DNA of 48,574 bases from IMG/VR virus record IMGVR_UViG_2734482555_000011. One strand, written 5' to 3'. Source of the stretch: a virus (Duplodnaviria; Heunggongvirae; Uroviricota; Caudoviricetes). Each line of letters begins with the position of its first letter. Position 1 is the first letter of the stretch. The translations under genes were made by a program, and so were the position numbers. Under the pieces are notes generated by a model that saw only the letters and a program-made list of their open reading frames with translations, was not told where the DNA came from and made no database searches. Shown piece after piece: positions 1,984 through 48,574 of the stretch.

Positions 1984-2793
1984 TTATTCCTCTGAATTAT
2001 CGATTACACTGTATTCCCCGGTTAATACAGAGGAATCTGCAGGATCGATTGTCAGTGGTTCCTTTTCATCCATTGATACTGCACGCTGGATCTCAATTGA
2101 TACGGGCAGATATTTGAACAGGCGACGAATAGCCGTTTTCTTTGCCATTTCTTCCCAGTGAGTTACCCACGGCCCGTTATTACCAGCTTTACTCTGGCTG
2201 CGCACCAGCTCAATCTGTTTGCGCGTCATAACTTCAAACTGAGTACCTCCGTCTTTCAGTCTTGCGACAGCATAGACGTGGGTAACAGGGGCATCTTCGT
2301 TTTCTCCTGGGCGGTGTATTAACTTTTCATCAAGGCCAAATTCGAAATTAAACTCGTCACCTTCACGGACAACACGGGCTGACAGGCTGGCGATTTGACC
2401 TGAACGGCGAGCCAGATCAATCATGCCGCGATAGCCAATGATTAGCTGAACGTTTTTTTTACCGCTCTTTTCGTTTTTATTACCAAAAGGCAGTAAATAT
2501 GCATGACCGAGGGCGCTACCGGGCTCAAGTCCGAGCTGTGAACACTGTACGATTGCACTGACAAAACTCATAGTGTCACAGTTTCCTAACGCCGGAACTT
2601 TACGAATTTCTGTGGTGGCGATACGGATCATACGTTCAGCCGTCATATGGCGTGGAAGAGCTGCTGCCAGTTGCTCTTTCATTGATGGCTGGTTAATAAA
2701 ACTAATCACGTCGTTATTTTTAATTGCTGCTGGTGCACGGTTTCCCTGAGTTTTTTGCAGATCGGCTTTTGCGATTGGTGGTTGCTTAGTCAT
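1984..2793 (-). CDS. recT: RecT single-strand annealing recombinase
   Basis: Track ORF 1984..2850; internal start [18 protein letters not shown]... gives 269 aa, matching recalled K-12 RecT. Lies immediately downstream of recE with a small overlap. Confidence 0.9.
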
Positions 2794-5386
2794 TTGCATA
2801 TTCCTTAGCCCAGCGGGGCAGTGATAACGTCTTAATAGCTGGCCATTCATCGGTATTGAGGCAGTCAGCCAGGGTTCGCAGATTGCGGTGATATTCCAGC
2901 TGACCTGCCAGTTTTGCTTCTTCGCCCATCATGAAAATTTCAACCGGATAACGTCCGCATTCAATAGTTGTGCTGGCAACCAGAAAAACGAAAGTTGGCT
3001 GCACTCCAAACTGTGCTTCATAACCGTCACTGTAGAATGCATCCTGAACGTGATAGCGGTAGTCGTAATAAGCGGTTTTGAATCGTTGAATATCCGCCGT
3101 AGTTTTCACGTCCATGATCCAGTGAAATTCAGGGATAATTTTGTCCGGACGGCACCGACACAAAATTGCTGTTTCAGGATCTTCCCAGTAAATTGATGAT
3201 TCAGCGTGTCCGGCGCTTTCAACAAGCCATTGCCCCAGCGGCAAAGCCATAACGCTCTGATACATGAGTTCAATTTTCCGGCCTTCTTCGGCAGTGATAA
3301 CCGTTTTTCCTGTGCTTGCGCATTCCCTCAGAAACGCTTTCTCTTCTTCTTTTCCGGAGTTTGTCCGGCGGTTAAATTCAGGTGCTACGATAAAGCGGTT
3401 ACTGAATTCTTCCGGCTCAAGTACCCGGCAGTGGAAAGCGGTTCCTAAATCGAGCGTTTTTGTCTTTGTGGTGTCCACGGGGGCATTTTTACGCCACAAA
3501 TACAGTGCCGGAGTATCAGCAATGTCATCGAGCTGAGACTTACTGACACCGGGACCCGCGTGGTAATTCTCATTCGAAATTCCGTAATAAATACCTGGCT
3601 CTATGTCTTCTACGATTACGGGATCTGCGACTTCGCCAGTTTCATCACTGCAATCGCGATGCGGATCGCTGCCAGCATTCTCATTGTGCGGATGTTCAGC
3701 GCCTTCCATTTCCTCCGGATCATTTTCCTTAGCTTCAACCTGACTCTCTTCATCGAATGTTTCCTGGTATGTTGCGTCGCCCATCACCGCACCACAGTCA
3801 GGGCAGTTATCCCCGCCAGTCTGGCCGCAGGCATTGCAGGCTATTTCCGGTTCCTGTTGCACTACTGGCTCAGGTTGATTCATATCCGGGCTGGTTTTTT
3901 CCGTTTCTGGCTGGTTCTGGTACACACAATCGCGAGTCTGGATCCCCTTTACCCATTTCGGATCGTTCGGGTCGCTAATTCCGTCAACAAATTCACCACG
4001 TGATGCAGCAAGCAATTTATCGGCATCGACAGGATTTTTTGATGGAATGTTTTTCCGGGCTTCATGGAGTTCTGCCCGCAGTTCCTGATATTTCGCATCA
4101 ACAGAATTTACCTGTGACTGAGCATCCAGCGGCTGCGTGTCCTGATGATGTTCAGTTGCGTCCGGTTCCATTGTTTCAGCCTCTCCCTGTTCAACTGCCG
4201 TTGTTCCAGATGGTTGCGGTTTTTCTTCATCATCCTGTTTTCCTTCTTCTGTTACTCGCTGCGGCATCGGGGCAGAGGAGCGACCGCAGGCAATATCCAC
4301 GATTTCCGGATCAGGGTTGGCATGATCGGTTTCAGTCAGTACTTTGTTCAGATATTCAGTGACGTGCGCGGGGATGACCTCGATCCCAATTGGTGCTTCT
4401 TTTACGGACGCAACCACGATGGCGCGGGAATAATCCAGCCCGCCAGGCATGGTGATGAATTTGTCGCGGAAAACAGAAAAGGGCGGTTTATTTTCAGCGA
4501 TAATTTCCTCAATGCGTTTAGCGTGTGCCGGATGAAGGTTATAGATGTCCAGATCCATTGAACGGGCCAGTACGCCAGTGGCTACGTCCCGCGCCAGTGA
4601 CGTCAGATCGTGTACGAAACCTTCGCCGCGATCGGTGAGGTTTCCGCCGCCAGCATTAGCACCGGAAGCCGTGCGAGTGATGTGTGAAACACGATTACCC
4701 TTCATCCACTCTTTTGTCAGCAGTCCTCGATCGGTGTAGTCAGCGTTCAGGTATGCTTCGAAAAAAGCAGTTATCAGTCCCAGGTTTGAATTACCAGGAT
4801 TAGGGAAAACTTTGTCAGTGTCACGAACCAGTTTGTGGAGTTCGCGAATTTCCAGCGGGTCGAGCAGGCTGGTTTTGTGGGAAACAGCCAGGGCAGTAAC
4901 AGCCGGTAGTTCTTCAGCCCGAGCAATGTGTAATGCCTGGAGTCCGTCGCGTGAAACGTGCGTTACCGGTTTTTCGCTGCCGTGTTGAGCAAGCCAACGA
5001 ATGGGCAGTTCCTGGCCAGAAATTGGGAGTAGCATATTCTCCTCAATCTCAGTCATGTCTTCGCCGTTGACGTTGGTATTGCCTTGATAGTGAGCGTTGT
5101 CTGGTGCTGCTCCCGGTTTTAGTTCCCATGTCATGGAGTCTTTGCTGAGTTGATAGCGTTCACTCCAGGTAAAATCGATCTCACCTTCAGCGGGCAGGTC
5201 ATTAACGACAGGAAAATTCGTGGCAACAGCTTTAAAATAGCTGCTCAGTTTTTTACCTGACTTAACGATCAGGTAGTCCAGAGTGGCACAGGTCGATTCA
5301 AAATCGTTGCTTGCCCACAGGACGACGTCAGGTTCACCGGATGATTTTTTCGCTTTCCGTAACAGGAAGAGTGGTTTTGTGCTCAT
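2786..5386 (-). CDS. recE: Exodeoxyribonuclease VIII (RecE), full length
   Basis: 866-aa minus-strand ORF, same length as K-12 RecE; the C-terminal region is the part I associate with the exonuclease fold. Plus-strand ORFs inside it are antisense artefacts. Confidence 0.9.
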
Positions 5387-5487: not shown

Positions 5488-5763
5488 TCAGATTTCACCT
5501 TTTAATTTCATTGCAATTAGAGTTGCCAGAAATTCGGCTTTTTTTTCTGCGGGCAGATTCTTTCCGATATGCACCAGGCACATTTTTTTGACACCTTCAT
5601 CAAGTGTTTTTACGTTGCCTGATGGACCATCGATATCAACCACAGTGAATGGGGTTTCTTTATTTTCTGTTTTAATTACGTAGCCAATGCGCTTTCCTTC
5701 CAGATTCACCTCGTGAACAATGTCATCGGTAGTTACAACAGTGGCTTCATAATTGGTAATCAT
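5488..5763 (-). CDS. racC: RacC protein
   Basis: Track ORF 5488..5811; internal start MITNYEATVVTTDDIVHEVNLEGKRIGYV... gives 91 aa as recalled for RacC. Confidence 0.8.
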   Translation of the reverse strand: MITNYEATVVTTDDIVHEVNLEGKRIGYVIKTENKETPFTVVDIDGPSGNVKTLDEGVKKMCLVHIGKNLPAEKKAEFLATLIAMKLKGEI

Positions 5764-5837
5764 GTTTTTCTCCTTAATTAAGGTTGAGCGAATACCTGCC
5801 ATTTCTGGCATAAATTCAGTTTCGAATAGTCAATTAA

Positions 5838-6008
5838 TTAAAGTTCATGTGCCATCTGGTCTTTTTCGGCACAAGCTTCACTGCAATATTTTCTCGGTTC
5901 GTCTTTTGATAAAATCCCGTGCATGAAGTGAAGCATTCTTTCAATAGCTTTGCTTTCTTCAACGTCTTTTTTGCAAAGGTGGTAAGCACATTTTATTTTC
6001 TTAGTCAT
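5838..6008 (-). CDS. ydaE: YdaE, small cysteine-containing protein
   Basis: Manual translation [56 protein letters not shown] (56 aa); under the 60-aa track threshold. Start overlaps the kilR stop. Confidence 0.7.
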   Translation of the reverse strand: MTKKIKCAYHLCKKDVEESKAIERMLHFMHGILSKDEPRKYCSEACAEKDQMAHEL

Positions 6009-6229
6009 CACCATGACTCCGCCTTTACAGGTAAACCATCACGACCGAGGAAGACTTTAATCATGCGGTCAGTAATGCATGTTTTTGTGGTCAGGTTACG
6101 AATATATAGTTTTCGCTTTTTAATATTGTTTGCCGAGGCAATATATGTCCGGCCTTCATGAAGAACATAATCGCCAGGAGTCACACACTGACGTGGTATT
6201 TCATCAGTTCCGAAGTGATGTGCAATCAT
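6008..6229 (-). CDS. kilR: KilR, FtsZ-targeting cell-division inhibitor
   Basis: Track ORF 6008..6241; start at [29 protein letters not shown]... gives 73 aa, matching recalled K-12 KilR. Confidence 0.8.
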
Positions 6230-6670
6230 AATTATCTCCATTTTTACAAATGAACTTTGTTGATGCGGTGCCTGGTGCCTCCAGGTGACTGCAACCAGTT
6301 AACAATTACAGTCGGCTTTCCCACCCAAACCAATAAGGACTAACATGACTTTTAACTGTGCCACGTGCGCTTAGCCGCATTCACCGCATCACAAAATTCA
6401 CTTTAAAAAGGGCGGACATCAGCCGAACTTCAAGAAAAAAACTGATGCCGCCAGGACTACACACAGCAATGTCGTTATTTACAACCGGAGGCGCACTCCC
6501 ACCATTTAAATTTAACAGACAAGACCGACTCTTTATGGATATCGGAAATGCGCCTTCGTGTTGTGCCCGGTTTTATTTCACCACCTCCGGGCTTCGGTGG
6601 TCTCGGCTATACCCCTACAGCGAGAGCTTGTGTTAACATTTCAATACCCTTACAGTTGAGAGTTATTGAT

Positions 6671-7159
6671 ATGTTGGATGTATTTACTCCATTGTTGAAA
6701 CTTTTTGCTAACGAGCCACTCGAAATACTTATGTATACGATTATCATTTTTGGTCTCACTCTCTGGCTGATACCGAAAGAGTTTACTGTCGCATTCAATG
6801 CTTATACTGAAATACCTTGGCTCTTTCAGATTATCGTTTTTGCCTTTTCTTTCGTGGTCGCCATTTCCTTCTCAAGATTGCGAGCACATATTCAAAAGCA
6901 TTATTCATTACTACCAGAGCAACGAGTATTGCTTCGTTTATCTGAGAAAGAAATCGCTGTATTTAAAGATTTCCTTAAAACAGGAAATCTTATTATCACT
7001 TCTCCTTGCCGTAACCCGGTTATGAAAAAATTAGAACGGAAGGGCATCATTCAACATCAGAGTGATAGCGCAAACTGTTCTTATTATCTCGTCACCGAAA
7101 AATACTCCCATTTTATGAAGTTATTCTGGAACAGCAGGAGTAGACGTTTTAATCGTTAG
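6671..7159 (+). CDS. sieB: Superinfection exclusion protein SieB
   Basis: Track ORF 6548..7159; internal start MLDVFTPLLKLFANEPLEILMYTIIIFGL... gives 162 aa with hydrophobic segments, as recalled for SieB. Opposite orientation to its neighbours, as in K-12 Rac. Confidence 0.8.
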   Translation: MLDVFTPLLKLFANEPLEILMYTIIIFGLTLWLIPKEFTVAFNAYTEIPWLFQIIVFAFSFVVAISFSRLRAHIQKHYSLLPEQRVLLRLSEKEIAVFKDFLKTGNLIITSPCRNPVMKKLERKGIIQHQSDSANCSYYLVTEKYSHFMKLFWNSRSRRFNR

Positions 7160-7311
7160 CTTACTGTGTGCTTCTCCAACCATCGGCGCGCACCAGTTTC
7201 GGTTTTAAATGTTTTGCTTTTGGTATACGTCATGGCAGTGAACGTTCCATCCTGGTTGGGGAACACGCCGCACACCAGGGATTCGTTGTTGCCGAGGTCG
7301 ATTTTTTGCAT
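7156..7311 (-). CDS. ydaF: YdaF small protein
   Basis: Manual minus-strand translation MQKIDLGNNESLVCGVFPNQDGTFTAMTYTKSKTFKTETGARRWLEKHTVS (51 aa); under the track threshold; convergent 4-nt overlap with sieB. Confidence 0.6.
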   Translation of the reverse strand: MQKIDLGNNESLVCGVFPNQDGTFTAMTYTKSKTFKTETGARRWLEKHTVS

Positions 7312-7321
7312 TTTGCGAATC

Positions 7322-7456
7322 TCACATCTTGTTGCTGTGTATAGCGACTTCTGCCTGCCAGAGATCCCAGTCGTTGCTGCGTAAAGCCTGCACAGCCTGG
7401 TTGTAAGTGATACCGCAACAATCCATCAAATACTGAACTACTTCGTAATGCACCAT
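7322..7456 (-). CDS. ydaG: YdaG small protein
   Basis: Track ORF 7322..7504; internal start MVHYEVVQYLMDCCGITYNQAVQALRSNDWDLWQAEVAIHSNKM (44 aa) matches recalled YdaG. Confidence 0.65.
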   Translation of the reverse strand: MVHYEVVQYLMDCCGITYNQAVQALRSNDWDLWQAEVAIHSNKM

Positions 7457-7624
7457 CTTATCTCTCCCCTTAACGCCGGGTGGCGGAACTGAAACCTGCT
7501 GCACTGCAAAATCTGAACCCTGCCGTCATGTTCATACGCCTCGGGCTGGCTACTTAACCCCTGACCACTGCCTGGTAACTCGAAGTATTGCCCTGCGTTC
7601 TGTGGGGCGGGGTGGGTTGGTAGG

Positions 7625-7675
7625 TATATAATGTACTTTGTGTTCATTGATGTAAAGTACTATAAGTACATTTTG
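7625..7675. promoter_or_regulatory. OL-like operator/promoter region with TGTACT-type repeats
   Basis: TGTACT at 7632-7637, palindromic AGTACT at 7656-7661 and AGTACA (reverse complement of TGTACT) at 7665-7670, in the gap between ydaG and the repressor gene. Promoter hexamers not resolved. Confidence 0.4.
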
Positions 7676-7746
7676 TGTGTAAAAAAATGAGATGGGATAA
7701 AGTGAAGCACAAACCCGGAGGGGGACGCTACCGGATTTATGCTGGT

Positions 7747-8184
7747 TTAAGAGGCTTTTTGTTTTTTCTTTCGTGCTAGCTCTTCGTAAATTGCATTGTA
7801 CTTCTGTTTTTTCTCCTCAAGAGTTTTTAAAAGTTCATCTGTCTCACTGTCAGGGAGCTCGTCCAGAAGGTCAATGATGATTTTTTGTCTTGGATTTAAC
7901 TCCTGATAGAAACGTACCTGTCCACTTTCTTCTGTATCCTCTCCCAAAAGATAGGTTGGTGTTGTTCCAATGAGTGTTGCTAATTCCCTTAATTTCTCTC
8001 GGCGAGGAATTGTTTCGCCATTAAACCATTTGCTAACCGCTTTTGGTGTTAATTTCATTCGACGGGCAATTTCTGCCTGCCTTCCATGTTGTTCATAACC
8101 AGCGTTTTCACAGGCTAGCGCAAGCCTACTGGCGAACTCTTTACGCGCTTTATCTTCATGAACCATAAGTTCAATGATATTCAC
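7747..8184 (-). CDS. racR: CI-like HTH prophage repressor (RacR position)
   Basis: 145-aa ORF (GTG at 8184; alternative ATG at 8166) with an HTH-like segment (GRQAEIARRMKLTPKAVSKWFNG). Sits where racR sits in K-12 Rac, divergent from the Cro-like gene. The allele may differ from K-12, so the symbol is by synteny. Confidence 0.6.
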   Translation of the reverse strand: MNIIELMVHEDKARKEFASRLALACENAGYEQHGRQAEIARRMKLTPKAVSKWFNGETIPRREKLRELATLIGTTPTYLLGEDTEESGQVRFYQELNPRQKIIIDLLDELPDSETDELLKTLEEKKQKYNAIYEELARKKKQKAS

Positions 8185-8245
8185 TCTTGAATGTACTGTC
8201 AGTTCTGTTATAGCATGTACTCAAAGTTCACATTGTGAGGGTGAT
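8185..8245. promoter_or_regulatory. OR/PR-like divergent promoter-operator region
   Basis: Plus-strand TTGAAT (8187-8192), 16-nt spacer, TATAGC (8209-8214), then GAGGG and the ATG at 8246. TGTACT repeats at 8192-8197 and 8215-8220 overlap and follow the hexamers. Confidence 0.45.
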
Positions 8246-8500
8246 ATGAACCAGAAAACACTTGAAGATGTAATCAAAACTGTTCGCGTTTCTGTTGTGG
8301 CCGACGTTTGTGGTGTCAGCCAAAGAGCAATCTACAAATGGATGGATAACGGAAAATTGCCTCGCACAGAATATACCGGCGAAACAAATTACGCTGAAAA
8401 AATCGCTCATGCATCAAACGGATTATTTTCTGCTGATGTAATTTTAACTATTGGCAGAAATAAAACTACTACGAAAAAGCTGATGGGAGTTGATTCATGA
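8246..8500 (+). CDS. Cro-like HTH regulator (YdaS position)
   Basis: Track ORF 8174..8500; ATG at 8246 follows GAGGG. Contains an HTH-like segment (VADVCGVSQRAIYKWMDNGKLP). The sequence does not look like the K-12 YdaS I recall, so no symbol is given. Confidence 0.6.
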   Translation: MNQKTLEDVIKTVRVSVVADVCGVSQRAIYKWMDNGKLPRTEYTGETNYAEKIAHASNGLFSADVILTIGRNKTTTKKLMGVDS

Positions 8501-8919
8501 AAATCAAGCATGAGCACATCGAGTCAGTGTTGTTAGCCCTGGCAGCCGAAAAAGGGCAGGCATGGGTAGCCAATGCCATTACTGAAGAATATCTGCGCCA
8601 GGGGGGCGGCGAATTGCCCCTGGTACCAGGCAAGGACTGGAATAATCAGCAGAATATCTATCACCGTTGGTTGAAAGGTGAAACGAAAACGCAAAGAGAA
8701 AAAATTCAGAAGCTGATCCCAGCAATTCTGGCAATCCTTCCGCGCGAGCTGCGTCACCGACTCTGCATCTTCGATACCCTGGAACGCCGTGCATTACTGG
8801 CGGCGCAGGAAGCGTTAAGTACGGCAATTGATGCGCATGATGATGCAGTCCAAGCCGTTTACCGGAAAGCGCATTTCAGCGGCGGCGGGTCTTCCGACGA
8901 TTCTGTCATTGTTCATTAA
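8497..8919 (+). CDS. ydaT: YdaT (CII-like regulator, toxic when derepressed)
   Basis: 140-aa ORF MKIKHEHIESVLLALAAEKGQAWVANAITEEYLRQGGGELPLVPGKDW...; matches recalled K-12 YdaT in sequence and length. ATGA overlap with the upstream gene. Confidence 0.8.
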   Translation: MKIKHEHIESVLLALAAEKGQAWVANAITEEYLRQGGGELPLVPGKDWNNQQNIYHRWLKGETKTQREKIQKLIPAILAILPRELRHRLCIFDTLERRALLAAQEALSTAIDAHDDAVQAVYRKAHFSGGGSSDDSVIVH

Positions 8920-8931
8920 GCAAAAGTTTCC

Positions 8932-9789
8932 ATGCTGTTTGTGCTTATTCTAAGCCACCGGGCAGCATCATACGGGGCAATTATGGCCGCATTACCATAC
9001 ATGCAACTGTACATAGCTGATTACCTGGCTGACACCATGCATTTGTCAGCAGAGGAGCATGGTGCGTATTTGTTGCTGATGTTCAATTACTGGCAAACAG
9101 GAAAGCCAATACCTAAAAACAGGCTGGCAAAAATTGCCCGTCTGACTAACGAGCGATGGGCTGATGTTGAACCATCCTTGCAGGAGTTTTTTTGCGATAA
9201 CGGCGAGGAATGGGTGCATCTTCGGATTGAGGAAGATCTGGCATCAGTCAGGGAAAAATTAACCAAAAAATCAGCCGCAGGAAAAGCATCTGTTCAGGCC
9301 AGAAGAAGCAGAAAGGAAGCAGATGTTCAAACAAAACAAGAGAGAAATTTAACAGGTGTTCAAACAGATGTTGAAGTGGTGTTTGAACATGATGTCAACA
9401 CAAAGGCAACTAATAAAGATACAGATAAAGATCTAAAAACAGATCCCCCCCTAAATCCCCCCCGGGGGAATCGAGGTGTCAAAAAGTTTGACCCTCTGGA
9501 TATTGCTTTGCCGAACTGGATTTCTGTCTCGCTTTGGCGTGAGTGGGTTGAATTTCGCCAGGCATTGCGAAAACCGATTCGAACGGAGCAGGGCGCTAAC
9601 GGGGCGATACGGGAGCTGGAAAAATTCCGCCAGCAGGGTTTTTCACCTGAGCAGGTGATTCGACACAGCATCGCCAATGAATACCAGGGCTTGTTCGCGC
9701 CGAAAGGTGTTCGACCTGAGACGTTACTCCGACAGGTTAACACCGTCTCGTTACCGGATAGTGCGATCCCGCCAGGCTTCAGGGGGTAA
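8932..9789 (+). CDS. ydaU: YdaU, replication-associated protein (O-like position)
   Basis: 285-aa ORF, same length as recalled K-12 YdaU; sits immediately upstream of the DnaC-like gene. Confidence 0.75.
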   Translation: MLFVLILSHRAASYGAIMAALPYMQLYIADYLADTMHLSAEEHGAYLLLMFNYWQTGKPIPKNRLAKIARLTNERWADVEPSLQEFFCDNGEEWVHLRIEEDLASVREKLTKKSAAGKASVQARRSRKEADVQTKQERNLTGVQTDVEVVFEHDVNTKATNKDTDKDLKTDPPLNPPRGNRGVKKFDPLDIALPNWISVSLWREWVEFRQALRKPIRTEQGANGAIRELEKFRQQGFSPEQVIRHSIANEYQGLFAPKGVRPETLLRQVNTVSLPDSAIPPGFRG

Positions 9790-9795
9790 CTGACC

Positions 9796-10542
9796 ATGAA
9801 AAATATTGCGACAGGCGACGTTCTTGAACGTATCCGCAGACTGGCCCCGTCACATGTAACCGCGCCATTCAAGACGGTAGCGGAGTGGCGCGAGTGGCAA
9901 CTTTCCGAAGGCCAGAAACGTTGTGAGGAGATCAACCGTCAGAATCGTCAGTTGCGGGTGGAAAAAATTCTGAATCGCTCTGGCATCCAGCCATTGCACC
10001 GCAAATGCTCGTTTTCGAATTACCAGGTGCAGAACGAAGCGCAGCGATACGCGTTGAGTCAGGCGAAATCCATCGCTGATGAACTGATGACCGGGTGTAC
10101 AAATTTTGCGTTCAGCGGAAAACCTGGTACCGGGAAGAACCACTTAGCGGCAGCTATCGGGAATCGCCTGCTGAAAGACGGTCAGACAGTGATTGTGGTT
10201 ACCGTGGCTGATGTTATGAGTGCCCTGCACGCCAGCTATGACGATGGGCAGTCAGGCGAAAAATTTTTGCGGGAACTATGCGAAGTGGATCTGCTGGTTC
10301 TTGATGAAATTGGCATTCAGCGCGAGACGAAAAACGAGCAGGTGGTGCTGCACCAGATTGTTGATCGCCGGACAGCGTCGATGCGCAGCGTGGGGATGCT
10401 GACAAACCTGAACTATGAGGCCATGAAAACATTGCTCGGCGAGCGGATTATGGATCGCATGACCATGAACGGCGGGCGATGGGTGAATTTTAACTGGGAG
10501 AGCTGGCGTCCGAATGTCGTCCAGCCAGGAATTGAGAAGTAA
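9796..10542 (+). CDS. ydaV: DnaC-like helicase loader / replication protein YdaV
   Basis: 248-aa ORF with Walker A motif [15 protein letters not shown] and Walker B-like LLVLDEIG; length as recalled for YdaV. Confidence 0.85.
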
Positions 10543-11758: not shown

Positions 11759-11896
11759 ACGTTACTAGATCAAAGAGCATTAGTTCATATGTAAATTGAC
11801 ATTTTTCTGGCACAGGGGAGAGCTAGCGTGGTTGTCCGCTTTGTGCCAATAGCGGACATTGCTGGCTCATGGTATGTTAGTTTAAGGAGGCAGGTT

Positions 11897-12919
11897 ATGC
11901 CCTGTATTTCGCTGTGGTATAATAGTTGCGCAATTGATACAAGGGAGCGTTACATCGTGAAAATTGTTTTCGAGGTTAATGGAAAGAAAGTTCCACTAAA
12001 ATCTTTAAAATACATAAGCAAAAAAGATCAACTCGAAGTAATGAAAAACTGGTTCTTTGAAAACTTTGAAGATCCGGCAAATGCTTGTCCGTATGAAAGT
12101 AGAGAAGGTGGCTATGCTTACATATATGGCGGGCCGTATGATGCGAGCGAAGAACTACAATCCATCTTCGGTCAATATGTTAAATCTGAGTATATTGAGG
12201 AATTAGTAGATGAATTACAAACACAATGTTTTGACTGGTCTGGAAACTCAAATAATATAGATGATTGGTACGATGATGATATCTACGACGCTGTAACGTC
12301 TTCCGGTAATCCGTATTTAAAATTCATTGATAATATCGATAAAATAAAAAAACTTGCAAAAGATAAAACTGAACAACAGCAAAAAAACCACTTGCTTAGT
12401 TTGCTCTACACGAATGTTATTACAGCTTTGGAAACGCTTTATGTTGAGCTATTCATTAATTCTATAGAGAAAGATGATGTCTACATAGCCAATTGTATAG
12501 AAAAAGGTAAGACTGAATTTAAAGTAAGCAAAGATATTGCTGCGTTGCCTTTCAAGGGTGAACCCATCGAGAAAATTAGGGGAGAGCTAATCAGGTCAAT
12601 CAAGGAACACTTGATCAGTGCAAGCTGGCATAGCACTAAAAAGGTAATCGACCGCTATGAAGCTACATTCGATATAAAAGTACAAAAAGACTGTCCGATA
12701 GAAGCTATTGAATTGGCAACCCTCAATCGAAATCACTTAGTGCATCGTGGTGGAAAGGATAAAGAAGGGAACCTCGTAGTGATTACAGACCAGGATCTTG
12801 AAACGCTGATTGAAAATGCATCGAACCTGGCAATTATGCTCTACAACAGTTTAAATGTAGCAACGAATAAAACCACCATTTTGCAACCAGATGACAAACC
12901 GTTCATTCATGAATTTTAA
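11897..12919 (+). CDS. Accessory protein with C-terminal R-x4-H (HEPN-like) motif; candidate abortive-infection effector
   Basis: Track ORF 11828..12919, visibly AT-rich. ATG at 11897 follows AAGGAGG with a 6-nt spacer; alternative GTG at 11957 follows AAGGGAG. C-terminal region has LATLNRNHLVHRGG (RNxLxH pattern). Fold assignment is inference. Confidence 0.55.
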   Translation: MPCISLWYNSCAIDTRERYIVKIVFEVNGKKVPLKSLKYISKKDQLEVMKNWFFENFEDPANACPYESREGGYAYIYGGPYDASEELQSIFGQYVKSEYIEELVDELQTQCFDWSGNSNNIDDWYDDDIYDAVTSSGNPYLKFIDNIDKIKKLAKDKTEQQQKNHLLSLLYTNVITALETLYVELFINSIEKDDVYIANCIEKGKTEFKVSKDIAALPFKGEPIEKIRGELIRSIKEHLISASWHSTKKVIDRYEATFDIKVQKDCPIEAIELATLNRNHLVHRGGKDKEGNLVVITDQDLETLIENASNLAIMLYNSLNVATNKTTILQPDDKPFIHEF

Positions 12920-12934
12920 TAGCGCAGGTCATAC

Positions 12935-13936
12935 ATGGATATTCGCACACGAAAGACAAAATTTTTAGAGTCGTTAGATTCAACTGAAGTGATACGCAAA
13001 GCAGTAAGTCTCGCTATAGATTGCATTATTGATAATCATAATAGTAATGAAGATACCCCCTTAGTTATTACCAGCTATGATGATCTCTGTAGAATCCAGG
13101 TGCTAAATTATGTACAGGAGTTTTGCGAAGCTGCATTCCCTGATATGGATGAATATTACTTTAGTCCTAACATACTTCGCATCAACGGCAAGACTAGTGA
13201 AGAAGCTTGTATTAACTTAATTAAACTCTTAAGAAGTACAAAAGGCATGCTATTCTGGTCCGATGCCCCATCGTGGTTCGCTAGCCTCCCCGACGGATTA
13301 TTCCATGTTGTTAACATTGATCAAAAAATCGTTACTCGCGGCCTTAATAAGAAAAACTCTAAGCCGACAATAATCAATAAAGATTACAGTGTAGATACAC
13401 TACTATCAGAGCTATTTTTGAATGGCGCACACATGGAGCAACCCAACGTACACAACGTTTCTGAGGGAAACATGAAGTTCTATGATGAATGCCATGCTGG
13501 ATTAATCAGACCAATACCCGCTCCAATAGGCGCGTCATACGATGAAGAGATCACAATTAATTCTCCAGATTGGCAAAAGCTCGCGTGTGTAGCTTTACGC
13601 CGCTATCAGTCGAAGGAATGTCATGACGGAATGCAATGGGATACAACCGATCATGGTTGGACTGATGTAATCGCGTATCCATTCGTCGAAGAAATACAAT
13701 CAATGGATAATAGTGGTTATCGACAATGTTTAGTTGGGCTGGTCACAATAAACAATTCAAATGCAAATTCTCCGTACCTATCTACCGTTTGGATACATCC
13801 ATTTTATCGCAGGAGAGGGTTATTAAGTAAGTTATGGCCAAAATTACAAGAGTTATATGGAAGTAACTTCGAAATTGAGCGACCTAATGAAAATATGAAA
13901 GCATTTCTGAAAAGTGCGAAACACGCAGATTACTAA
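12935..13936 (+). CDS. Accessory protein with C-terminal GNAT-like acetyltransferase motif
   Basis: 333-aa ORF starting 15 nt after the upstream gene (operon-like), AT-rich. C-terminal LSTVWIHPFYRRRGLLSKLWPKL resembles GNAT motif A; N-terminal ~200 aa unrecognised. Confidence 0.55.
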   Translation: MDIRTRKTKFLESLDSTEVIRKAVSLAIDCIIDNHNSNEDTPLVITSYDDLCRIQVLNYVQEFCEAAFPDMDEYYFSPNILRINGKTSEEACINLIKLLRSTKGMLFWSDAPSWFASLPDGLFHVVNIDQKIVTRGLNKKNSKPTIINKDYSVDTLLSELFLNGAHMEQPNVHNVSEGNMKFYDECHAGLIRPIPAPIGASYDEEITINSPDWQKLACVALRRYQSKECHDGMQWDTTDHGWTDVIAYPFVEEIQSMDNSGYRQCLVGLVTINNSNANSPYLSTVWIHPFYRRRGLLSKLWPKLQELYGSNFEIERPNENMKAFLKSAKHADY

Positions 13937-17590: not shown

Positions 17591-18122
17591 GGGCTGGTTT
17601 ATTGTATGCCAAATGATTATTAAAAAGGTTGTGTTAATAACAAGATCCGAAATAATATGCCTGCATATTTTTATCTTGCTTATATTCTGCATATTGTGCA
17701 TAGCAGGCTCATCCCTGCAATCAAAACTGTATGATGAGTATTTTTTGTTTTCCTTTTTTCCAGTCATCTGATGATGACCTGCTTCTTTTTAATCCGGATC
17801 GACATCAGTTTTTTAAGATAATTCCTGCGAGTTATATGCATAAATGCCACAAACTCCGCATTTTATGTGGTTGGGAGTTGCCGGGCGCGCAGTGAGTTTG
17901 CTAAGAAAACTCCTGCATGGTGAATCCCCCTGTGCGGTGGGGTGATACCATTAACCTTTTCTGTCGCCGACAGGTATCACGAACATTTTGTTCACCGGGA
18001 GGCACCCGGCACCATGCACTTCAATAGATTCTCTCCACATTATGGATATTCTTTCAGAATATCCCACGCAGACTTTGTGTAAATGTTAACAAATGTGCGT
18101 TTTATTTGATCTGATTCGCTGT

Positions 18123-19623: not shown

Positions 19624-20074
19624 TGCCTCCATCATTACGAAAAGTCGTTGCTGCTGCTATTGGTGGCGGAGCAATTGCTATAGCATCAGTGTTAATCACT
19701 GGCCCAAGTGGTAACGATGGTCTGGAAGGTGTCAGCTACATACCATACAAAGATATTGTTGGTGTATGGACTGTATGTCACGGGCATACAGGAAAAGACA
19801 TCATGCTCGGTAAAACGTATACCAAAGCAGAATGCAAAACACTCTTGAATAAAGACCTTGCCACTGTCGCCAGACAAATTAACCCGTACATCAAAGTCGA
19901 TATACCGGAAACAACGCGCGGCGCTCTTTACTCATTCGTTTACAACGTGGGTGCTGGCAATTTCAGAACATCGACGCTTCTTCGCAAAATAAACCAGGGC
20001 GATATCAAAGGCGCATGTGATCAGCTACGTCGCTGGACATATGCTGGCGGTAAGCAATGGAAAGGTCTCATGAC
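19623..20074 (+). CDS. SAR endolysin (phage-21 R-type lysozyme), 3' end lost in N run
   Basis: [44 protein letters not shown]... with N-terminal signal-anchor-release segment, matching recalled R21. Reading frame runs into the N block at 20075. Confidence 0.8.
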
Positions 20075-20295
20075 NNNNNNNNNNNNNNNNNNNNNNNNNN
20101 NNNNNNNNNNNNNNNNNNNNNNNNNNNNNNNNNNNNNNNNNNNNNNNNNNNNNNNNNNNNNNNNNNNNNNNNNNNNNNNNNNNNNNNNNNNNNNNNNNNN
20201 NNNNNNNNNNNNNNNNNNNNNNNNNNNNNNNNNNNNNNNNNNNNNNNNNNNNNNNNNNNNNNNNNNNNNNNNNNNNNNNNNNNNNNNNNNNNNNN
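20075..20295. other. Run of N (221 nt), masked or unsequenced
   Basis: Literal n characters; covers the endolysin 3' end and the Rz 5' end. Confidence 1.
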
Positions 20296-38499: not shown

Positions 38500-39086
38500 T
38501 GCAGGACATACAACAGGAAACGCTGAATGAATGCATTCGTGCGGAGCAGTCGGCCAGCGTGGTGCTCTGGGAAATCGACCTGACCGAGGTAGGCGGGGAT
38601 CGCTACTTTTTCTGCAATGAGCAGAACGAGAAAGGAGAGTCTGTCACCTGGCAGAGTCGGCAGTATCAGGCCTATCCCATTCAGGGGAGTGGATTTGAGA
38701 TGAACGGCAAAGGTGCCAGTGCAAGGCCAACGCTGAAAGTCTCTAATCTGCACGGCATGGTCACCGGGATGGCGGAAGACCTGCAGAGTCTGGTCGGCGG
38801 AACGGTGGTCAGGCGTAAGGTTTACGCCCGTTTTCTGGATGCGGTGAACTTCGTCAACGGAAACAGTGACGCCGATCCGGAGCAGGAGGTGATCAGCCGC
38901 TGGCGTATTGAGCAGTGCAGCGAACTGAGCGCGGTCAGTGCCTCCTTTGTACTGTCCACGCCGACGGAAACGGACGGCGCTGTTTTTCCGGGGCGCATCA
39001 TGCTTGCTAATACCTGCACCTGGACCTATCGCGGTGATGAGTGCGGTTATCACGGTCCGGCTGTCGCGGATGAATATGACCAGCCA
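38499..39086 (+). CDS. L: Minor tail protein L (lambda gpL-like), 3' end lost in N run
   Basis: [47 protein letters not shown]...ECGYHGPAVADEYDQP matches lambda gpL as recalled; runs into N block at 39087. Confidence 0.8.
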
Positions 39087-39336
39087 NNNNNNNNNNNNNN
39101 NNNNNNNNNNNNNNNNNNNNNNNNNNNNNNNNNNNNNNNNNNNNNNNNNNNNNNNNNNNNNNNNNNNNNNNNNNNNNNNNNNNNNNNNNNNNNNNNNNNN
39201 NNNNNNNNNNNNNNNNNNNNNNNNNNNNNNNNNNNNNNNNNNNNNNNNNNNNNNNNNNNNNNNNNNNNNNNNNNNNNNNNNNNNNNNNNNNNNNNNNNNN
39301 NNNNNNNNNNNNNNNNNNNNNNNNNNNNNNNNNNNN
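39087..39336. other. Run of N (250 nt), masked or unsequenced
   Basis: Literal n characters across the L/K junction. Confidence 1.
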
Positions 39337-40559: not shown

Positions 40560-43500
40560 ATGGGTAAAGGCAGCAGTAAGGGGCATACCCCGCGCGAAGC
40601 GAAGGACAACCTGAAGTCCACGCAGCTGCTGAGTGTGATCGATGCCATCAGCGAAGGGCCGGTTGAAGGTCCGGTGGATGGATTAAAAAGCGTGCTGCTG
40701 AACAGTACGCCGGTGCTGGACAATGAGGGGAATACCAACATCTCCGGCGTCACGGTGGTGTTCCGGGCAGGTGAGCAGGAGCAGTCACCGCCGGAGGGAT
40801 TTGAATCCTCCGGCTCCGAGACGGTGCTGGGTACGGAAGTGAAATATGACACGCCGATCACCCGGACCATCACGTCGGCAAACATTGACCGACTGCGTTT
40901 TACCTTCGGTGTACAGGCACTGGTGGAAACCACCTCAAAGGGAGACAGGAATCCGTCTGAAGTTCGCCTGCTGGTTCAGATACAGCGTAACGGTGGCTGG
41001 GTGACGGAAAAAGACATCACCATTAAGGGCAAAACCACCTCGCAGTATCTGGTCTCGGTGGTGGTGGATAACCTGCCTCCGCGCCCGTTCAGTATCCGGA
41101 TGCGCAGGATGACACCGGACAGCACCACAGACCAGCTGCAGAACAAAACGCTCTGGTCGTCATACACCGAAATCATCGATGTGAAACAGTGCTACCCGAA
41201 CACTGCACTGGTCGGCGTACAGGTGGACTCGGAGCAGTTCGGCAGCCAGCAGGTGAGTCGTAATTATCATCTTCGCGGGCGCATTCTGCAGGTGCCGTCG
41301 AACTATAACCCGCAGACGCGACAATACAGCGGTATCTGGGACGGAACGTTAAAACCAGCATACAGCAACAACATGGCCTGGTGTCTGTGGGATATGCTGA
41401 CCCACCCGCGCTACGGCATGGGGAAACGTCTTGGTGCGGCGGATGTGGACAAATGGGCGCTGTATGTCATCGGCCAGTACTGCGACCAGNNNNNNNNNNN
41501 NNNNNNNNNNNNNNNNNNNNNNNNNNNNNNNNNNNNNNNNNNNNNNNNNNNNNNNNNNNNNNNNNNNNNNNNNNNNNNNNNNNNNNNNNNNNNNNNNNNN
41601 NNNNNNNNNNNNNNNNNNNNNNNNNNNNNNNNNNNNNNNNNNNNNNNNNNNNNNNNNNNNNNNNNNNNNNNNNNNNNNNNNNNNNNNNNNNNNNNNNNNN
41701 NNNNNNNNNNNNNNNNNNNNNNNNNNNNNNNNNNNNNNNNNNNNNNNNNNNNNNNNNNNNNNNNNNNNNNNNNNNNNNNNNNNNNNNNNNNNNNNNNNNN
41801 NNNNNNNNNNNNNNNNNNNTTGACCCGGATAACGGCTGGGAGACGGCGACAGAGCTTGTGGAGGATACGCAGGCCATTGCCCGTTACGGTCGTAACGTCA
41901 CGAAGATGGATGCTTTTGGCTGTACCAGCCGGGGGCAGGCACACCGCGCCGGGCTGTGGCTGATTAAAACAGAACTGCTGGAAACGCAGACCGTGGACTT
42001 CAGCGTGGGCGCAGAAGGGCTTCGCCATGTGCCGGGCGATGTCATTGAAATCTGTGATGATGACTATGCGGGTATCAGCATCGGCGGGCGCGTGCTGGCG
42101 GTAAACAGCCAGACCCGGACGCTGACGCTCGACCGTGAAATCACGCTGCCATCCTCCGGTACCATGCTGATAAGCCTGGTTGACGGAAGTGGCAATCCGG
42201 TCAGCGTGGAGGTTCAGTCCGTCACCGACGGCGTGAAGGTGAAAGTGAGCCGTGTTCCTGACGGCGTTGCTGAATACAGCGTGTGGGGGCTGAAGCTGCC
42301 GACGTTGCGCCAGCGCCTGTTCCGCTGTGTGNNNNNNNNNNNNNNNNNNNNNNNNNNNNNNNNNNNNNNNNNNNNNNNNNNNNNNNNNNNNNNNNNNNNN
42401 NNNNNNNNNNNNNNNNNNNNNNNNNNNNNNNNNNNNNNNNNNNNNNNNNNNNNNNNNNNNNNNNNNNNNNNNNNNNNNNNNNNNNNNNNNNNNNNNNNNN
42501 NNNNNNNNNNNNNNNNNNNNNNNNNNNNNNNNNNNNNNNNNNNNNNNNNNNNNNNNNNNNNNNNNNNNNNNNNNNNNNNNNNNNNNNNNNNNNNNNNNNN
42601 NNNNNNNNNNNNNNNNNNNNNNNNNNNNNNNNNNNNNNNNNNGCTGACAGTCCGGGCGGTAAATGCCTGGGGACAGCAGGGCGATCCGGCGTCGGTATCG
42701 TTCAGGATTGCCGCACCGGTAGCACCGTCGCGGATTGAGCTGACGCCGGGCTATTTTCAGATAACTGCCACGCCGCATCTTGCGGTTTATGATCCGACGG
42801 TACAGTTTGAGTTCTGGTTCTCGGAAACGCGGATTACCGATATCAGGCAGGTTGAAACCACAGCCCGCTACCTTGGCGCGGGGCTGTACTGGATAGCCGC
42901 CAGTATCAATATCAAACCGGGCCATGATTATTACTTTTATATCCGCAGTGTGAACACCGTTGGCAAATCGGCATTCGTGGAGGCCGTCGGTCGGGCGAGC
43001 GATGATGCGGAAGGTTACCTGGATTTTTTCAAAGGCAAGATAACCGAATCCCATCTCGGTAAAGAGCTGCTGGAAAAAGTTGATCTGACGGAGGATAACG
43101 CCAGCAGACTGGATGAGTTTTCGAAAGAGTGGAAGGACGCTAACGATAAATGGAATGCGATGTGGGGCGTCAAAATTGAGCAGACCAAAGACGGCAAACA
43201 TTATGTCGCGGGTATTGGCCTCAGCATGGAGGACACGGAGGAAGGCAAGCTGAGCCAGTTTCTGGTTGCCGCCAATCGTATCGCGTTTATTGACCCGGCA
43301 AACGGGAATGAAACGCCGATGTTTGTGGCGCAGGGCAACCAGATATTCATGAATGACGTGTTCCTGAAGCGCCTGACAGCCCCCGCCATTACCAGCGGTG
43401 GCAGTCCTCCGGTATTTTCCCTGACATCAGACGGAAAGCTGACCGCTAAAAATGCGGATATCAGTGGTAGTGTGAATGCGAACTCAGGAACGCTCAACAA

Positions 43501-48106: not shown

Positions 48107-48574
48107 CCTGCAAACAGTACCGATATTGCACCGCCAGATATTCCGGCTGGTTTCGTGGCTGTTTTCAACAGTGATGAGTCATCGTGGCATCTCGTTGAAG
48201 ATCATCGGGGTAAAACGGTTTATGACGTGGCTTCCGGCGACGCGTTATTTATTTCTGAACTCGGCTCATTACCGGAAAATGTCACCTGGTTATCCCCGGA
48301 AGGGGAGTTTCAGAAGTGGAACGGCACAGCCTGGGTGAAGGATACGGAAGCAGAAAAACTGTTCCGGATCCGGGAGGCGGAAGAAACAAAAAACAGCCTG
48401 ATGCAGGTAGCCAGTGAGCATATAGCGCCGCTTCAGGATGCTGTGGATCTGGAGATCGCAACGGAGAAAGAAACCTTGTTGCTGGAAGCTTGGAAAAAGT
48501 ATCGGGTGTTGCTGAACCGTGTTGATACATCAACTGCACCGGATATTGAATGGCCAGTAGCACCTATAGGGTAA
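48107..48574 (+). CDS. tfa: Tail fibre assembly protein Tfa, 5' end lost in N run
   Basis: Frame after the N block reads [53 protein letters not shown]...[12 protein letters not shown], matching TfaR/TfaQ-type proteins as recalled, whose N-terminus would lie in the N block. Stop at 48572-48574. Confidence 0.8.

Follow-up and report, generated by a model that had tools for sequence, protein, structure and literature searches.

A predicted HK022-type operator and promoter arrangement in the immunity cassette of a Rac-family prophage of Escherichia coli

Introduction

In phage lambda, tandem palindromic operators cover each of the two divergent early promoters, between which the repressor gene lies. 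OR1 and OR2 are 24 bp apart, the repressor mRNA made from PRM is leaderless, and the third OR site serves autoregulation.

Two further systems are closer to the locus considered here. The HK022 immunity region (CI, Cro, OL and OR) goes back to Carlson & Little 1993, as cited in PMC8053113, and pairwise cooperativity as well as looping have been shown for HK022 CI (PMC8053113). The 933W operators have been defined by experiment as 15-bp sites symmetric about a central base pair, with five natural sites, three at OR and two at OL (PMC3317979). Their rules are as follows: positions 2-5 are G, A/T, A and C, position 6 is T or C, and the centre is A/T; 933W CI binds such 15-bp sites in vitro, reportedly without cooperative binding to adjacent sites (PMC3317979). 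In the model of 933W CI, the base contacts are made by K42 and K46; the K46A substitution abolishes specific binding, and in S41A the preference at position 2 is lost (PMC3317979).

Here, we describe the immunity cassette of a Rac-family lambdoid E. coli prophage contained in a stretch of 48,574 nucleotides (the window); a relative that is 99.8% identical over 7400-8600 adjoins ttcA, the site of K-12 Rac. Judged from sequence comparison, the cassette at 7623-8490 is very probably an HK022-type genetic switch in which a 139-aa repressor would act on five 15-bp symmetric operators (Table 1).

Table 1. Positions of the predicted regulatory elements and genes of the cassette in the window
Feature	Coordinates	Strand	Description
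Immunity cassette	7623..8490	.	OL/PL, repressor gene, OR/PRM/PR, cro; the only stretch unlike K-12 Rac
PL, leftward early promoter	7628..7656	-	Predicted; TTTACA-17-CATTAT; 9/12 matches in promoter scan
OL1	7632..7646	.	15-bp operator TGTACTTTGTGTTCA; core match; PWM score 16.9
OL2	7656..7670	.	15-bp operator AGTACTATAAGTACA; core match; PWM score 23.3, the highest in the window
Repressor gene	7747..8166	-	139 aa; HK022-like HTH at residues 1-75; same CDS called by PGAP
OR3	8159..8173	.	15-bp operator TGAACCATAAGTTCA; core match; PWM score 20.4
PRM-like maintenance promoter	8174..8202	-	Predicted; CTGACA-17-TATCAT; 10/12 matches in promoter scan
PR, rightward early promoter	8187..8216	+	Predicted; -35 TTGAAT at 8187-8192; two -10 options
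OR2	8192..8206	.	15-bp operator TGTACTGTCAGTTCT; core match; PWM score 19.2
OR1	8216..8230	.	15-bp operator TGTACTCAAAGTTCA; core match; PWM score 18.0
Cro-like gene	8246..8500	+	84 aa; same CDS called by PGAP

Operator sites on both sides of the repressor gene

The starting point was a prediction that TGTACT-type repeats flank the repressor gene as candidate OL and OR operators. The repeats are in place. On the left lie TGTACT at 7632-7637 on the plus strand, the palindromic AGTACT at 7656-7661 and AGTACA, which is TGTACT on the minus strand, at 7665-7670; on the right, TGTACT occurs at 8192-8197 and at 8216-8221, the latter ending one base beyond the interval (8192-8220) that had been given for the pair. 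The sequence TTGAAT-16-TATAGC (8187-8214), directed toward the Cro-like gene, also exists as described and overlaps the right-hand repeats. While the hexamers themselves were correctly listed, the unit is a 15-bp inverted repeat, TGWACT-N3-AGTWCA, five copies of which flank the repressor gene, and the partner halves as well as OR3 had been missed. Each TGTACT or TGAACT hexamer is thus best read, from its sequence, as one operator half-site. The hexamers at 7656 and 7665 pair with each other to form a single site, OL2; the partner halves of the other three hexamer-bearing sites are AGTTCA, AGTTCT or TGTTCA, and OR3 contains no TGTACT.

All five sites carry G-W-A-C on both halves and an A/T centre, and position 6 is T or C in nine of the ten half-sites. 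The irregularities are an A at position 6 in one half of OL1 and an outer A rather than T in OR2. Measured between centres, OL1 and OL2 are 24 bp apart, as are OR1 and OR2, and OR2 and OR3 are 33 bp apart; about 550 bp lie between OL and OR. Allowing up to one core mismatch between 7300 and 9000 adds a single match, at 7623-7637, which overlaps OL1.

Over-representation of TGTACT had been proposed as a check, and across the whole window it is weak: 20 matches are found against 13.55 +/- 3.26 expected, a marginal enrichment that 4 of 100 shuffles equal or exceed. Clustering and the 15-bp unit give a strong signal. Six members of the hexamer family fall within 650 bp (maximum 4 in 1000 Markov simulations), and the 48.6 kb contain the core GWAC-N5-GTWC 7 times against 1.58 +/- 1.15 expected, with none of 100 shuffles reaching 7; five of the seven lie within 7633-8229, about 600 bp. 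No simulation out of 1000 yielded five cores per 650 bp, and not even two sites appeared in any of 20000 simulations at local composition. The core pattern was set after inspection of the data; related loci supply the independent test. A position weight matrix (PWM) built from other loci only ranks the five sites at the top (16.9-23.3, with the next match at 12.2), a result that is partly circular because the training sites were chosen by the core pattern. The two remaining cores, at 17981-17993 (inside an STnc100 match) and 45093-45105, score only 5.6 and 6.7 and were treated as chance, and a TGTACT at 7797 inside the repressor gene, which has no partner half, is probably a chance match as well.

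Predicted promoters

OL1 occupies the PL spacer together with the first bases of its -10 element, and OL2 abuts the PL -35 with a one-base overlap. Tritos, Salmonella, Raoultella and HK022 have a corresponding promoter, TTTACA-17-CAT(T/A/C)(A/T)T, conserved in this position. According to the PGAP annotation of a 99.8% identical strain, the genes downstream of PL are ydaG, ydaF, kilR, racC, recE, recT, ralR, xis and int. An antitermination RNA of the HK022 put type was considered for the conserved PL leader (7460-7625) but found no support: the leader's fold is no better than that of shuffled sequences (z +1.56), it has no Rfam match at E up to 1, and blastn detects no similarity to HK022 downstream of PL.

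The predicted PRM has its -35 within OR2, whose central CTGAnA is kept in relatives, and OR3 is centred on the repressor ATG and the predicted start of the maintenance transcript. This ATG follows the maintenance -10 by 7 nt, in the window as in HK022, so that little or no leader is expected on the repressor mRNA. The TAnnAT element 7 nt before the ATG is retained in relatives, the -10 of HK022 PM is labelled at the equivalent position, and in the records of 933W and 24B the annotated pRM has the corresponding position, its start being 1 nt ahead of cI.

PR offers two -10 options: TATAGC at 8209-8214 with a 16-nt spacer, chosen in the original prediction, and TAGCAT at 8211-8216 with an 18-nt spacer, which is homologous to the annotated pR -10 of 933W and 24B. 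Neither is strong; TATAGC lacks the final T, for which reason PR was missing from the consensus scan, and TAGCAT requires the longer spacer. Relatives show TTGCGT-16-CATAAT or TATAAT in the same columns, and the 933W and 24B records annotate pR at the corresponding place. OR2 covers the PR spacer, and OR1 lies directly 3' of the PR -10 over the predicted transcription start.

Repressor, Cro and the cassette

The repressor consists of a helix-turn-helix (HTH) domain, a flexible linker and a two-helix C-terminal tail. A Pfam search returns HTH_3 at 1.8e-9 and no Peptidase_S24 (PF00717), the protein ending at residue 139; since the autocleavage domain is missing, RecA-driven self-cleavage is not expected. 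The AlphaFold model (mean pLDDT 82.6) likewise has a disordered linker followed by two C-terminal helices. Homologues from Raoultella, Klebsiella, Enterobacter, Vibrio and Haemophilus that share the N-terminal domain have lengths of 221-252 aa, and those with recorded Pfam calls carry S24. Residues T40-G50, including K42 and K46, are invariant in the family alignment, with P at position 41 in this repressor. A PDB sequence search with the repressor finds only the P22 C2 DNA-binding domain (E 0.006), the same search with Cro finds no match, and Foldseek with the repressor model gives generic HTH_XRE matches only, with E above 1e-3. When used alone as a homologue query, the tail retrieves fragments of the same protein only. 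The divergent gene encodes an HK022-type Cro (62% identity to HK022 Cro over 73 aa, E 2e-34).

The cassette sits in a backbone shared with K-12 Rac. Alignment by blastn gives 99.3% identity at window positions 5500-7622 and 99.4% at 8491-10313, with no match between them, and the segment from OL to cro is therefore read, from sequence, as having been exchanged as one cassette relative to K-12 Rac. The racR-ydaS cassette of K-12 (positions 2120-3178 of that locus) has no similarity to 7623-8490, and the immunity is not of the RacR/YdaS kind. Of 5426 complete E. coli genomes, at least 1044 carry the cassette at 96% identity or more, many of them at the Rac locus; phage records submitted as isolates, such as Tritos and the vB_EcoS series, contain it too. 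No LexA box (CTGT-N8-ACAG) exists anywhere in the window. The near-identical strain 1428 has a KilA-N gene to the right of the switch; different ORFs occupy this place in the window, and no antirepressor candidate was established.

Conservation in related loci

Thirty-five related loci were found via the repressor. The genome scan selected for the peptide TPKAVSKW, and the uniform recognition helix among these loci is hence a matter of construction. Three core sites upstream of the repressor gene, with spacings of 24 (25) and 32-34 bp, are present in 29 of the 35 loci, or 28 without a near-identical Shigella copy. An OL-type pair, 24-25 bp apart, follows 0.5-3 kb downstream beyond variable cargo in 24 loci. 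Site-bearing loci range from Enterobacterales to Vibrio, Haemophilus and Pseudomonas, with repressor identities down to about 40%. An alignment of the loci anchored on OR3 alone shows conserved OR1 and OR2 half-sites and promoter hexamers but variable central bases. A Cro homologue adjoins the repressor gene in divergent orientation in 34 related loci. The sites thus exist, are non-random, are positionally conserved together with homologous repressor and Cro genes, and match the operator grammar of 933W. A full-text search of the literature for the motif in pattern form yielded no paper.

Comparison with described switches

HK022 provides the closest parallel. Its CI is 47% identical to the repressor over 99 aa (BLASTP), rising to 58% for residues 1-77 (tblastn), and its recognition helix, TPKAISKW, differs from TPKAVSKW in one residue. 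The right-hand sites of HK022 (TGAACTTATGGTTCA, GGAACTGATAGTACA and again TGAACTTATGGTTCA) have the spacings of 24 and 33 bp seen in the window; its OL pair is likewise 24 bp apart, OL/PL DNA is 82% identical over 61 nt, and OR3, read on the repressor's strand, is identical. The distance between OL and OR is also similar, at about 700 bp in HK022 (PMC8053113). HK022 CI is a 235-aa protein with an S24 autocleavage and oligomerisation domain, in place of which the 139-aa repressor has a DicA-like helical tail; HK022 has additional sites, OL3 and, about 300 bp downstream of OR, another (PMC8053113), neither of which is found in the window; and where HK022 has a lambda-type cII, the prophage has ydaT. 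Since HK022 CI and 933W CI have a different C-terminal domain, the cooperativity and looping of HK022 CI cannot be transferred to this repressor.

The 933W CI is 51% identical to residues 1-77 of the repressor (tblastn), and the window's sites are in register with the 15-bp units annotated as oR1-oR3 in the 933W record, where oR3 overlies the cI start and oR2 is degenerate. The OR spacings are 24/32 bp in 933W against 24/33 bp here. Helix and half-site covary: 933W combines SSKGVSKW with an outer C (CGTAC), whereas all repressors with TPKAVSKW, and HK022, go with TGWAC. Unlike the repressor of the window, 933W CI has an S24 domain and is RecA-inducible. Altogether, the site pattern, the layout of three OR sites with a cluster on the far side and a homologous HTH with K42 and K46 place the operators with those of HK022 and 933W; the repressor itself is not a LexA-like (S24) lambdoid CI. 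The view of the repeats as OL, repressor and OR has gained support from this homology of HTH and Cro, the common register and the same offsets in about 28 loci, and their assignment as repressor half-sites is backed by the agreement with the 933W rules (PMC3317979) and annotated register. As for the suggestion that they define the immunity specificity of this prophage, such a specificity is not a private one: HK022 and many prophages with a TPKA(V/I)SKW helix share the half-site.

The resemblance to lambda extends to the layout of operators and promoters, the 24-bp spacing of OR1 and OR2, a leaderless repressor mRNA (predicted in the window) and a third OR site. The lambda operators, however, are 17 bp long, unrelated in sequence and three in number at OL, against 15 bp and two OL sites here, and lambda CI has an S24-type C-terminal domain that this repressor lacks. 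Furthermore, lambda OR2 is placed for activation, upstream of the PRM -35, but OR2 of the window overlaps the -35, and a repressor bound there might therefore turn PRM down instead of activating it.

A short repressor, a leaderless repressor gene, sets of sites at OR and OL and a YdaT-type CII analogue are shared with the PaaR2/YdaS/YdaT system of CP-933P (PMC8630535). Its operators are 18-bp palindromes with the unrelated half-site GTTTAGTAA, which is absent from the OR (8150-8245) and OL segments of the window, and, in contrast to the present repressor, that of CP-933P heads a toxin-antitoxin operon (PMC8630535); the locus does not belong to the PaaR2/YdaS switches. DicA of the K-12 Qin prophage is 29% identical over 112 aa, tail included (E 5e-15), and the repressor has the make-up of a short DicA-like protein: HTH_XRE, a short helical tail with an L..LP.SE motif and no peptidase. 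No GWAC-N5-GTWC site lies between dicC and dicA of Qin, and because the operators differ from Qin's, the likeness is one of architecture and not of specificity.

Alternative explanations and proposed mechanism

Could the repeats be chance products of AT-rich promoter DNA to which nothing specific binds? The two intergenic segments are indeed AT-rich (40% GC, 46% in the window), and the bare hexamer is only marginally enriched window-wide; yet the local-composition simulations set against the five observed cores, the same offsets in about 28 independent loci with repressors as little as about 40% identical, and homology to experimentally defined operators effectively refute this explanation. 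It is also improbable that the sites are read mainly by Cro or the CII-like YdaT rather than by the leftward-encoded repressor. A Cro homologue accompanies the site scaffold in the 34 loci, lambdoid Cro proteins share the repressor's operators, and YdaT of K-12 Rac also binds the racR-ydaS intergenic region (PMC11879457). Against this, the homologous 933W CI binds sites of this type in vitro (PMC3317979), the sites covary with the repressor helix between the 933W and HK022 types, and four loci (L006-L008 and L013) retain the three sites and the repressor gene, with no Cro homologue found; on that side, L006-L008 have a gene for a Q antiterminator instead. The motif of YdaT, TTGATT-N6-AATCAA (PMC11879457), is a different one and occurs once, at 8490-8507. 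Joint use by Cro is in any case expected, which makes this hardly a rival.

Improbable, too, is a decayed relic whose sites descend from an HK022-like ancestor and regulate nothing in this prophage. Rac-family prophages are often cryptic, the PR -10 TATAGC is weaker than the CATAAT and TATAAT of relatives, the window has no LexA box, and an inducing route is not evident. Repressor, cro and the five sites are all intact, however, and the frequency of the near-identical cassette in E. coli genomes and its occurrence in isolate-deposited phages speak against decay. With kilR in the leftward operon (K-12 KilR is annotated as inhibiting FtsZ), selection should act against a loss of repression; an analogous case is racR, reported to be essential in K-12 (PMC5700373).

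The reading preferred here is a working HK022-type switch, in which the repressor would bind the five operators, most likely as a dimer. OR1 and OR2, covering the start, spacer and -35 edge of PR, would then turn off cro and ydaT, and OL1 and OL2, on the spacer, -10 and -35 edge of PL, would turn off the leftward operon (ydaG, kilR, recET, xis and int). OR3, which sits on the repressor ATG and on the start of the leaderless transcript, would mediate negative autoregulation, and Cro is expected to work through these operators as well, in the lytic direction. Binding itself is inferred here, and so are the sequence in which the sites fill, cooperativity, looping between OL and OR across about 550 bp and the influence of an occupied OR2 on PRM.

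Implications

The locus is an uncharacterised, ordinary member of the known HK022/933W operator family and represents no new kind of mechanism. What is provided are base-level coordinates for the operators and three predicted promoters of a common E. coli cassette that presumably keeps toxic kilR and the recombination genes recET silent in Rac-family prophages. As the cassette is tied to the HK022/933W grammar, the mutational rules of 933W become directly usable for operator mutants, reporters and orthogonal parts.

The shared recognition helix and half-sites make cross-repression with incoming HK022-type phages possible in both directions, and cross-immunity with such phages is predicted, as is a lack of SOS self-cleavage. 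A broader proposition is doubtful, and we offer it tentatively: that a repressor of HK022 specificity with a DicA-like tail, found in about one-fifth of complete E. coli genomes, is a non-inducible, domesticated immunity factor that silences kilR and recET and cross-represses with HK022-type phages, as part of a single pan-gammaproteobacterial specificity. If true, a cassette of repressor domain, operator scaffold and Cro would have been reused with different C-terminal domains and cargo.

Probable operator sites on both sides of the repressor gene

The original prediction took TGTACT-type hexamers flanking the repressor gene as likely half-sites of lambda-like OL and OR operators. A reading of 6800-9200 recovers every element listed, namely TGTACT at 7632-7637, 8192-8197 and 8216-8221, the palindrome AGTACT at 7656-7661 with AGTACA at 7665-7670, and a rightward promoter whose TTGAAT and TATAGC elements lie 16 nt apart. 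The expected over-representation of TGTACT is borne out locally but scarcely for the window as a whole: the bare hexamer is only slightly enriched (20 versus 13.55 +/- 3.26 expected), whereas six members of the hexamer family crowd into 650 bp, with a maximum of four in 1000 simulations.

The hexamers are paired within 15-bp imperfect inverted repeats (TGTACT-TTG-TGTTCA, AGTACT-ATA-AGTACA, TGTACT-GTC-AGTTCT and TGTACT-CAA-AGTTCA). The shared core, GWAC-N5-GTWC, is found seven times in 48.6 kb versus 1.58 expected, a count reached by 0 of 100 shuffles; the 1612 masked N in the window (e.g. 20074-20295, 39086-39336, 41489-41819, 42331-42642 and 44600-44850) affect window-wide motif counts and shuffles slightly. 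Five of the seven matches start at 7633, 7657, 8160, 8193 and 8217, and one of these belongs to a fifth site, TGAACCATAAGTTCA at 8159-8173, which lacks TGTACT and had been overlooked. In simulations with local composition, even two core sites were obtained in 0 of 20,000 runs. Since the core pattern was set after inspection of the data, the decisive test is comparative. A further segment, GGTATATAATGTACT, matches the core with one mismatch, shares its right half with the TGTACT of OL1 and spans the PL -10; joint occupancy with OL1 is impossible, and the match is probably fortuitous.

Predicted features of the immunity region
Feature	Position	Strand	Description
PL leader	7465-7622	minus	directly downstream of PL, upstream of ydaG
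Exchanged cassette	7623-8490		OL/PL, repressor gene, OR, cro
One-mismatch core site	7623-7637		GGTATATAATGTACT
PL	7656..7628	minus	TTTACA-17-CATTAT; kept in relatives and HK022
OL1	7632-7646		operator
OL2	7656-7670		operator
Repressor gene	7747-8166	minus	HTH_3 protein, 139 aa, no Peptidase_S24 domain
OR3	8159-8173		operator
PRM	8202..8174	minus	maintenance promoter, CTGACA-17-TATCAT
PR -35	8187-8192	plus	TTGAAT
OR2	8192-8206		operator
PR -10	8209-8214	plus	TATAGC (16-nt spacer); alternative TAGCAT (18-nt spacer)
OR1	8216-8230		operator
Cro-like gene	8246-8500	plus	84 aa
YdaT box	8490-8507		TTGATT-CATGAA-AATCAA
YdaT-family gene	8497-8919		CII-like

Conservation across related loci

Homologues of the repressor comprise short-type Salmonella proteins (62-65% identity) and Raoultella and Klebsiella proteins in which an N-terminal domain 62-72% identical is fused to an S24 peptidase. 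In these loci core matches are confined to three sites directly upstream of the repressor gene, at the window's spacings, and to a second pair, 24 bp apart, past cargo that varies from higBA-like genes in Salmonella to an AAA ATPase in Raoultella. When one genome per species was scanned, 35 loci were recovered with repressor identity down to about 40%, from hosts including Kluyvera, Enterobacter, Brenneria, Pantoea, Providencia, Vibrio, Photobacterium, Haemophilus, Pseudomonas, Salinicola and one alphaproteobacterial MAG. Three sites upstream of the repressor gene, at spacings of 24 (25) and 32-34 bp, are present in 29 of the 35, including one near-identical Shigella copy, and 24 loci have a pair spaced by 24-25 bp at 0.5-3 kb downstream. 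Uniformity of the recognition helix is partly built in, because the scan used the peptide TPKAVSKW.

In an alignment of the loci anchored only on the OR3-like site, half-sites of the two other operators proved conserved and their central bases variable. Conservation extends to the complement of a TTG -35, to an ATAAT-like -10 that lies between OR1 and OR2, and to TAnnAT 7 nt before the ATG. A weight matrix built from the other loci only, from training sites chosen by the core pattern, ranks the window's five sites highest (16.9-23.3; next 12.2), with values of 6.7 and 5.6 for the two stray matches to the core at 45092 and 17981. On comparison and homology, the interpretation as OL, repressor and OR with the hexamers as half-sites holds, with corrections.

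The OR scaffold is retained in distant hosts with repressors of approximately 40-50% identity (L033-L037, Haemophilus; L024-L029, Vibrio, Photobacterium and Providencia; L032, Pseudomonas; L038, the alphaproteobacterial MAG), with three sites, spacings, promoter hexamers and mostly an ATG 7 nt past the -10. The Pasteurellaceae loci differ in that OR3 is 25-30 bp upstream of the repressor gene's matched start, and a third OL site, at 29 bp from the pair, occurs in some Haemophilus loci. In L006-L008 (Logan contigs, 2387-2510) the same three operators and an S24-type repressor homologue face, in place of cro, an antiterminator Q gene with holin and endolysin genes behind it. Neither L006-L008 nor L013 (Enterobacter sp. 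BIGb0383), which retains three sites, showed a Cro homologue; L006-L008 appear to be a variant layout in which an HK022-type OR would gate late and lysis genes directly.

Relationship to HK022 and 933W

In tblastn searches of phage records, the DNA-binding domain matches HK022 (58% over residues 4-75) and 933W together with many Stx phages (51%). HK022 CI is 47% identical to the repressor over 99 aa (BLASTP), the Cro proteins are 62% identical, and the OL/PL DNA is 82% identical over 61 nt. Upstream of its cI gene, HK022 carries TGAACTTATGGTTCA, GGAACTGATAGTACA and TGAACTTATGGTTCA at 24- and 33-bp spacings, and it also has an OL pair 24 bp apart. In the 933W GenBank record, oR1, oR2 and oR3 are marked as 15-bp units that share the window's register, with pR and pM overlying them.

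The 933W operator, with five natural sites over OR and OL, is 15 bp long and symmetric around a central A/T base pair, with strongly conserved positions 2-5 (G, A/T with T preferred, A, C) and T or C at position 6 (PMC3317979). The window's five sites obey these rules. In the 933W CI model, base contacts are made by K42 and K46; the K46A mutant lacks specific binding and S41A the preference at position 2 (PMC3317979). Both lysines are invariant across the repressor family. Helix and half-site covary, in that 933W combines SSKGVSKW with CGTAC, whereas all TPKAVSKW repressors, the window's among them, and HK022 (TPKAISKW) go with TGWAC (L045 versus L010-L041 and L046). Because position 1 carries little weight for 933W CI (PMC3317979), the difference in immunity between 933W and HK022 is not obvious from the sites alone.

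Promoters and a proposed switch mechanism

OL1 occupies the PL spacer and extends into the -10, while OL2 adjoins the -35. OR2 occupies the PR spacer and OR1 spans the PR start; the alternative PR -10 lies at the position homologous to the annotated 933W element. The repressor ATG is 7 nt past the PRM -10, which predicts a leaderless message, in line with the annotations of 933W and 24B, where the pRM start is placed 1 nt before cI. Leaderless messages are also reported for paaR2 and lambda cI (PMC8630535). OR3 is centred on the predicted start of the repressor message. Repressor dimers at OR1/OR2 and OL1/OL2 would occlude RNA polymerase, repressor synthesis would be limited through OR3, and Cro would use the same sites.

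HK022 CI loops OL and OR (PMC8053113) via its C-terminal domain; the window's repressor lacks that domain, and its operators are about 550 bp apart. 933W CI reportedly binds adjacent sites non-cooperatively (PMC3317979). OR2 overlaps the PRM -35, and lambda-style activation is therefore not to be assumed.

In the repressor model (mean pLDDT 82.6), residues 1-75 form a five-helix HTH domain, residues 77-87 are a disordered linker, and the C-terminal part consists of two helices, of which the second spans 106-138. A structure search returned generic HTH_XRE matches only; at full length, tail included, Qin DicA is 29% identical over 112 aa. The repressor is a mosaic. RecA-stimulated self-cleavage is not expected, as there is no S24 domain; the window contains no LexA box, and no antirepressor candidate could be assigned from its ORFs or the annotation of a near-identical strain.

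The approximately 160-nt PL leader is 87-97% conserved in 3830 of 5426 complete E. coli genomes, with any immunity type, and is mostly unannotated. It has a C-rich start (ACCUACCAACCCACCCCGCCCCAC), folds more poorly than shuffles (z +1.56) and has no match in Rfam. A role in Rho loading, or some other leader function, is possible.

Exchange of the immunity cassette in a Rac-family prophage

PGAP calls the same three CDSs in a strain 99.8% identical over 7400-8600. There the element adjoins ttcA and carries intR, xisR, ralR, recT, recE, racC, kilR, sieB and ydaF on its left side, which identifies a Rac-family prophage. Identity to K-12 Rac is 99.3% at 5500-7622 and 99.4% at 8491-10313, and the intervening 868 bp stand in place of K-12 racR-ydaS. 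The exchanged block runs from 5 nt outside the -10 of PL to the last codons of cro, so that it encompasses precisely OL/PL, the repressor gene, OR and cro. As a classical immunity-region swap, the exchange speaks for a single functional module made up of both operator clusters and the two regulators. In agreement, 34 related loci combine the scaffold with a Cro homologue, and only 4 with a YdaT homologue.

At least 1044 of 5426 complete E. coli genomes carry the cassette at about 96% identity or above, with query coverage of at least 80%. Several deposited phage genomes have it too, e.g. Tritos, in which the gene products are named CI and Cro. A literature search found no paper on this repressor or its operators. 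Judged by sequence, the cassette belongs to the HK022/933W operator family as a new, uncharacterised member, in which operators of that type occur together with a DicA-like tail on the repressor and a CII analogue of the YdaT type.

A perfect YdaT box overlaps the ydaT ATG (8497) exactly at the right junction of the cassette, with K-12 homology from 8491 and the first T of the box an A in K-12. In K-12 Rac, YdaT works through this box to switch on racR transcription from a reverse promoter within ydaS (PMC11879457); an equivalent would need to sit within the unrelated cro gene and was not found there. At 11828-13936, where strain 1428 (the strain 99.8% identical over 7400-8600) has a KilA-N domain gene and others, the window contains two large ORFs of 363 and 333 aa; the prophages therefore carry different cargo within a few kb on the right-hand side of the switch. 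Rfam matches over the gathering score are the RalA antitoxin sRNA (1557-1735, 225 bits), STnc100 (17885-18071, 87 bits) and IS009 (48336-48534, 218 bits).
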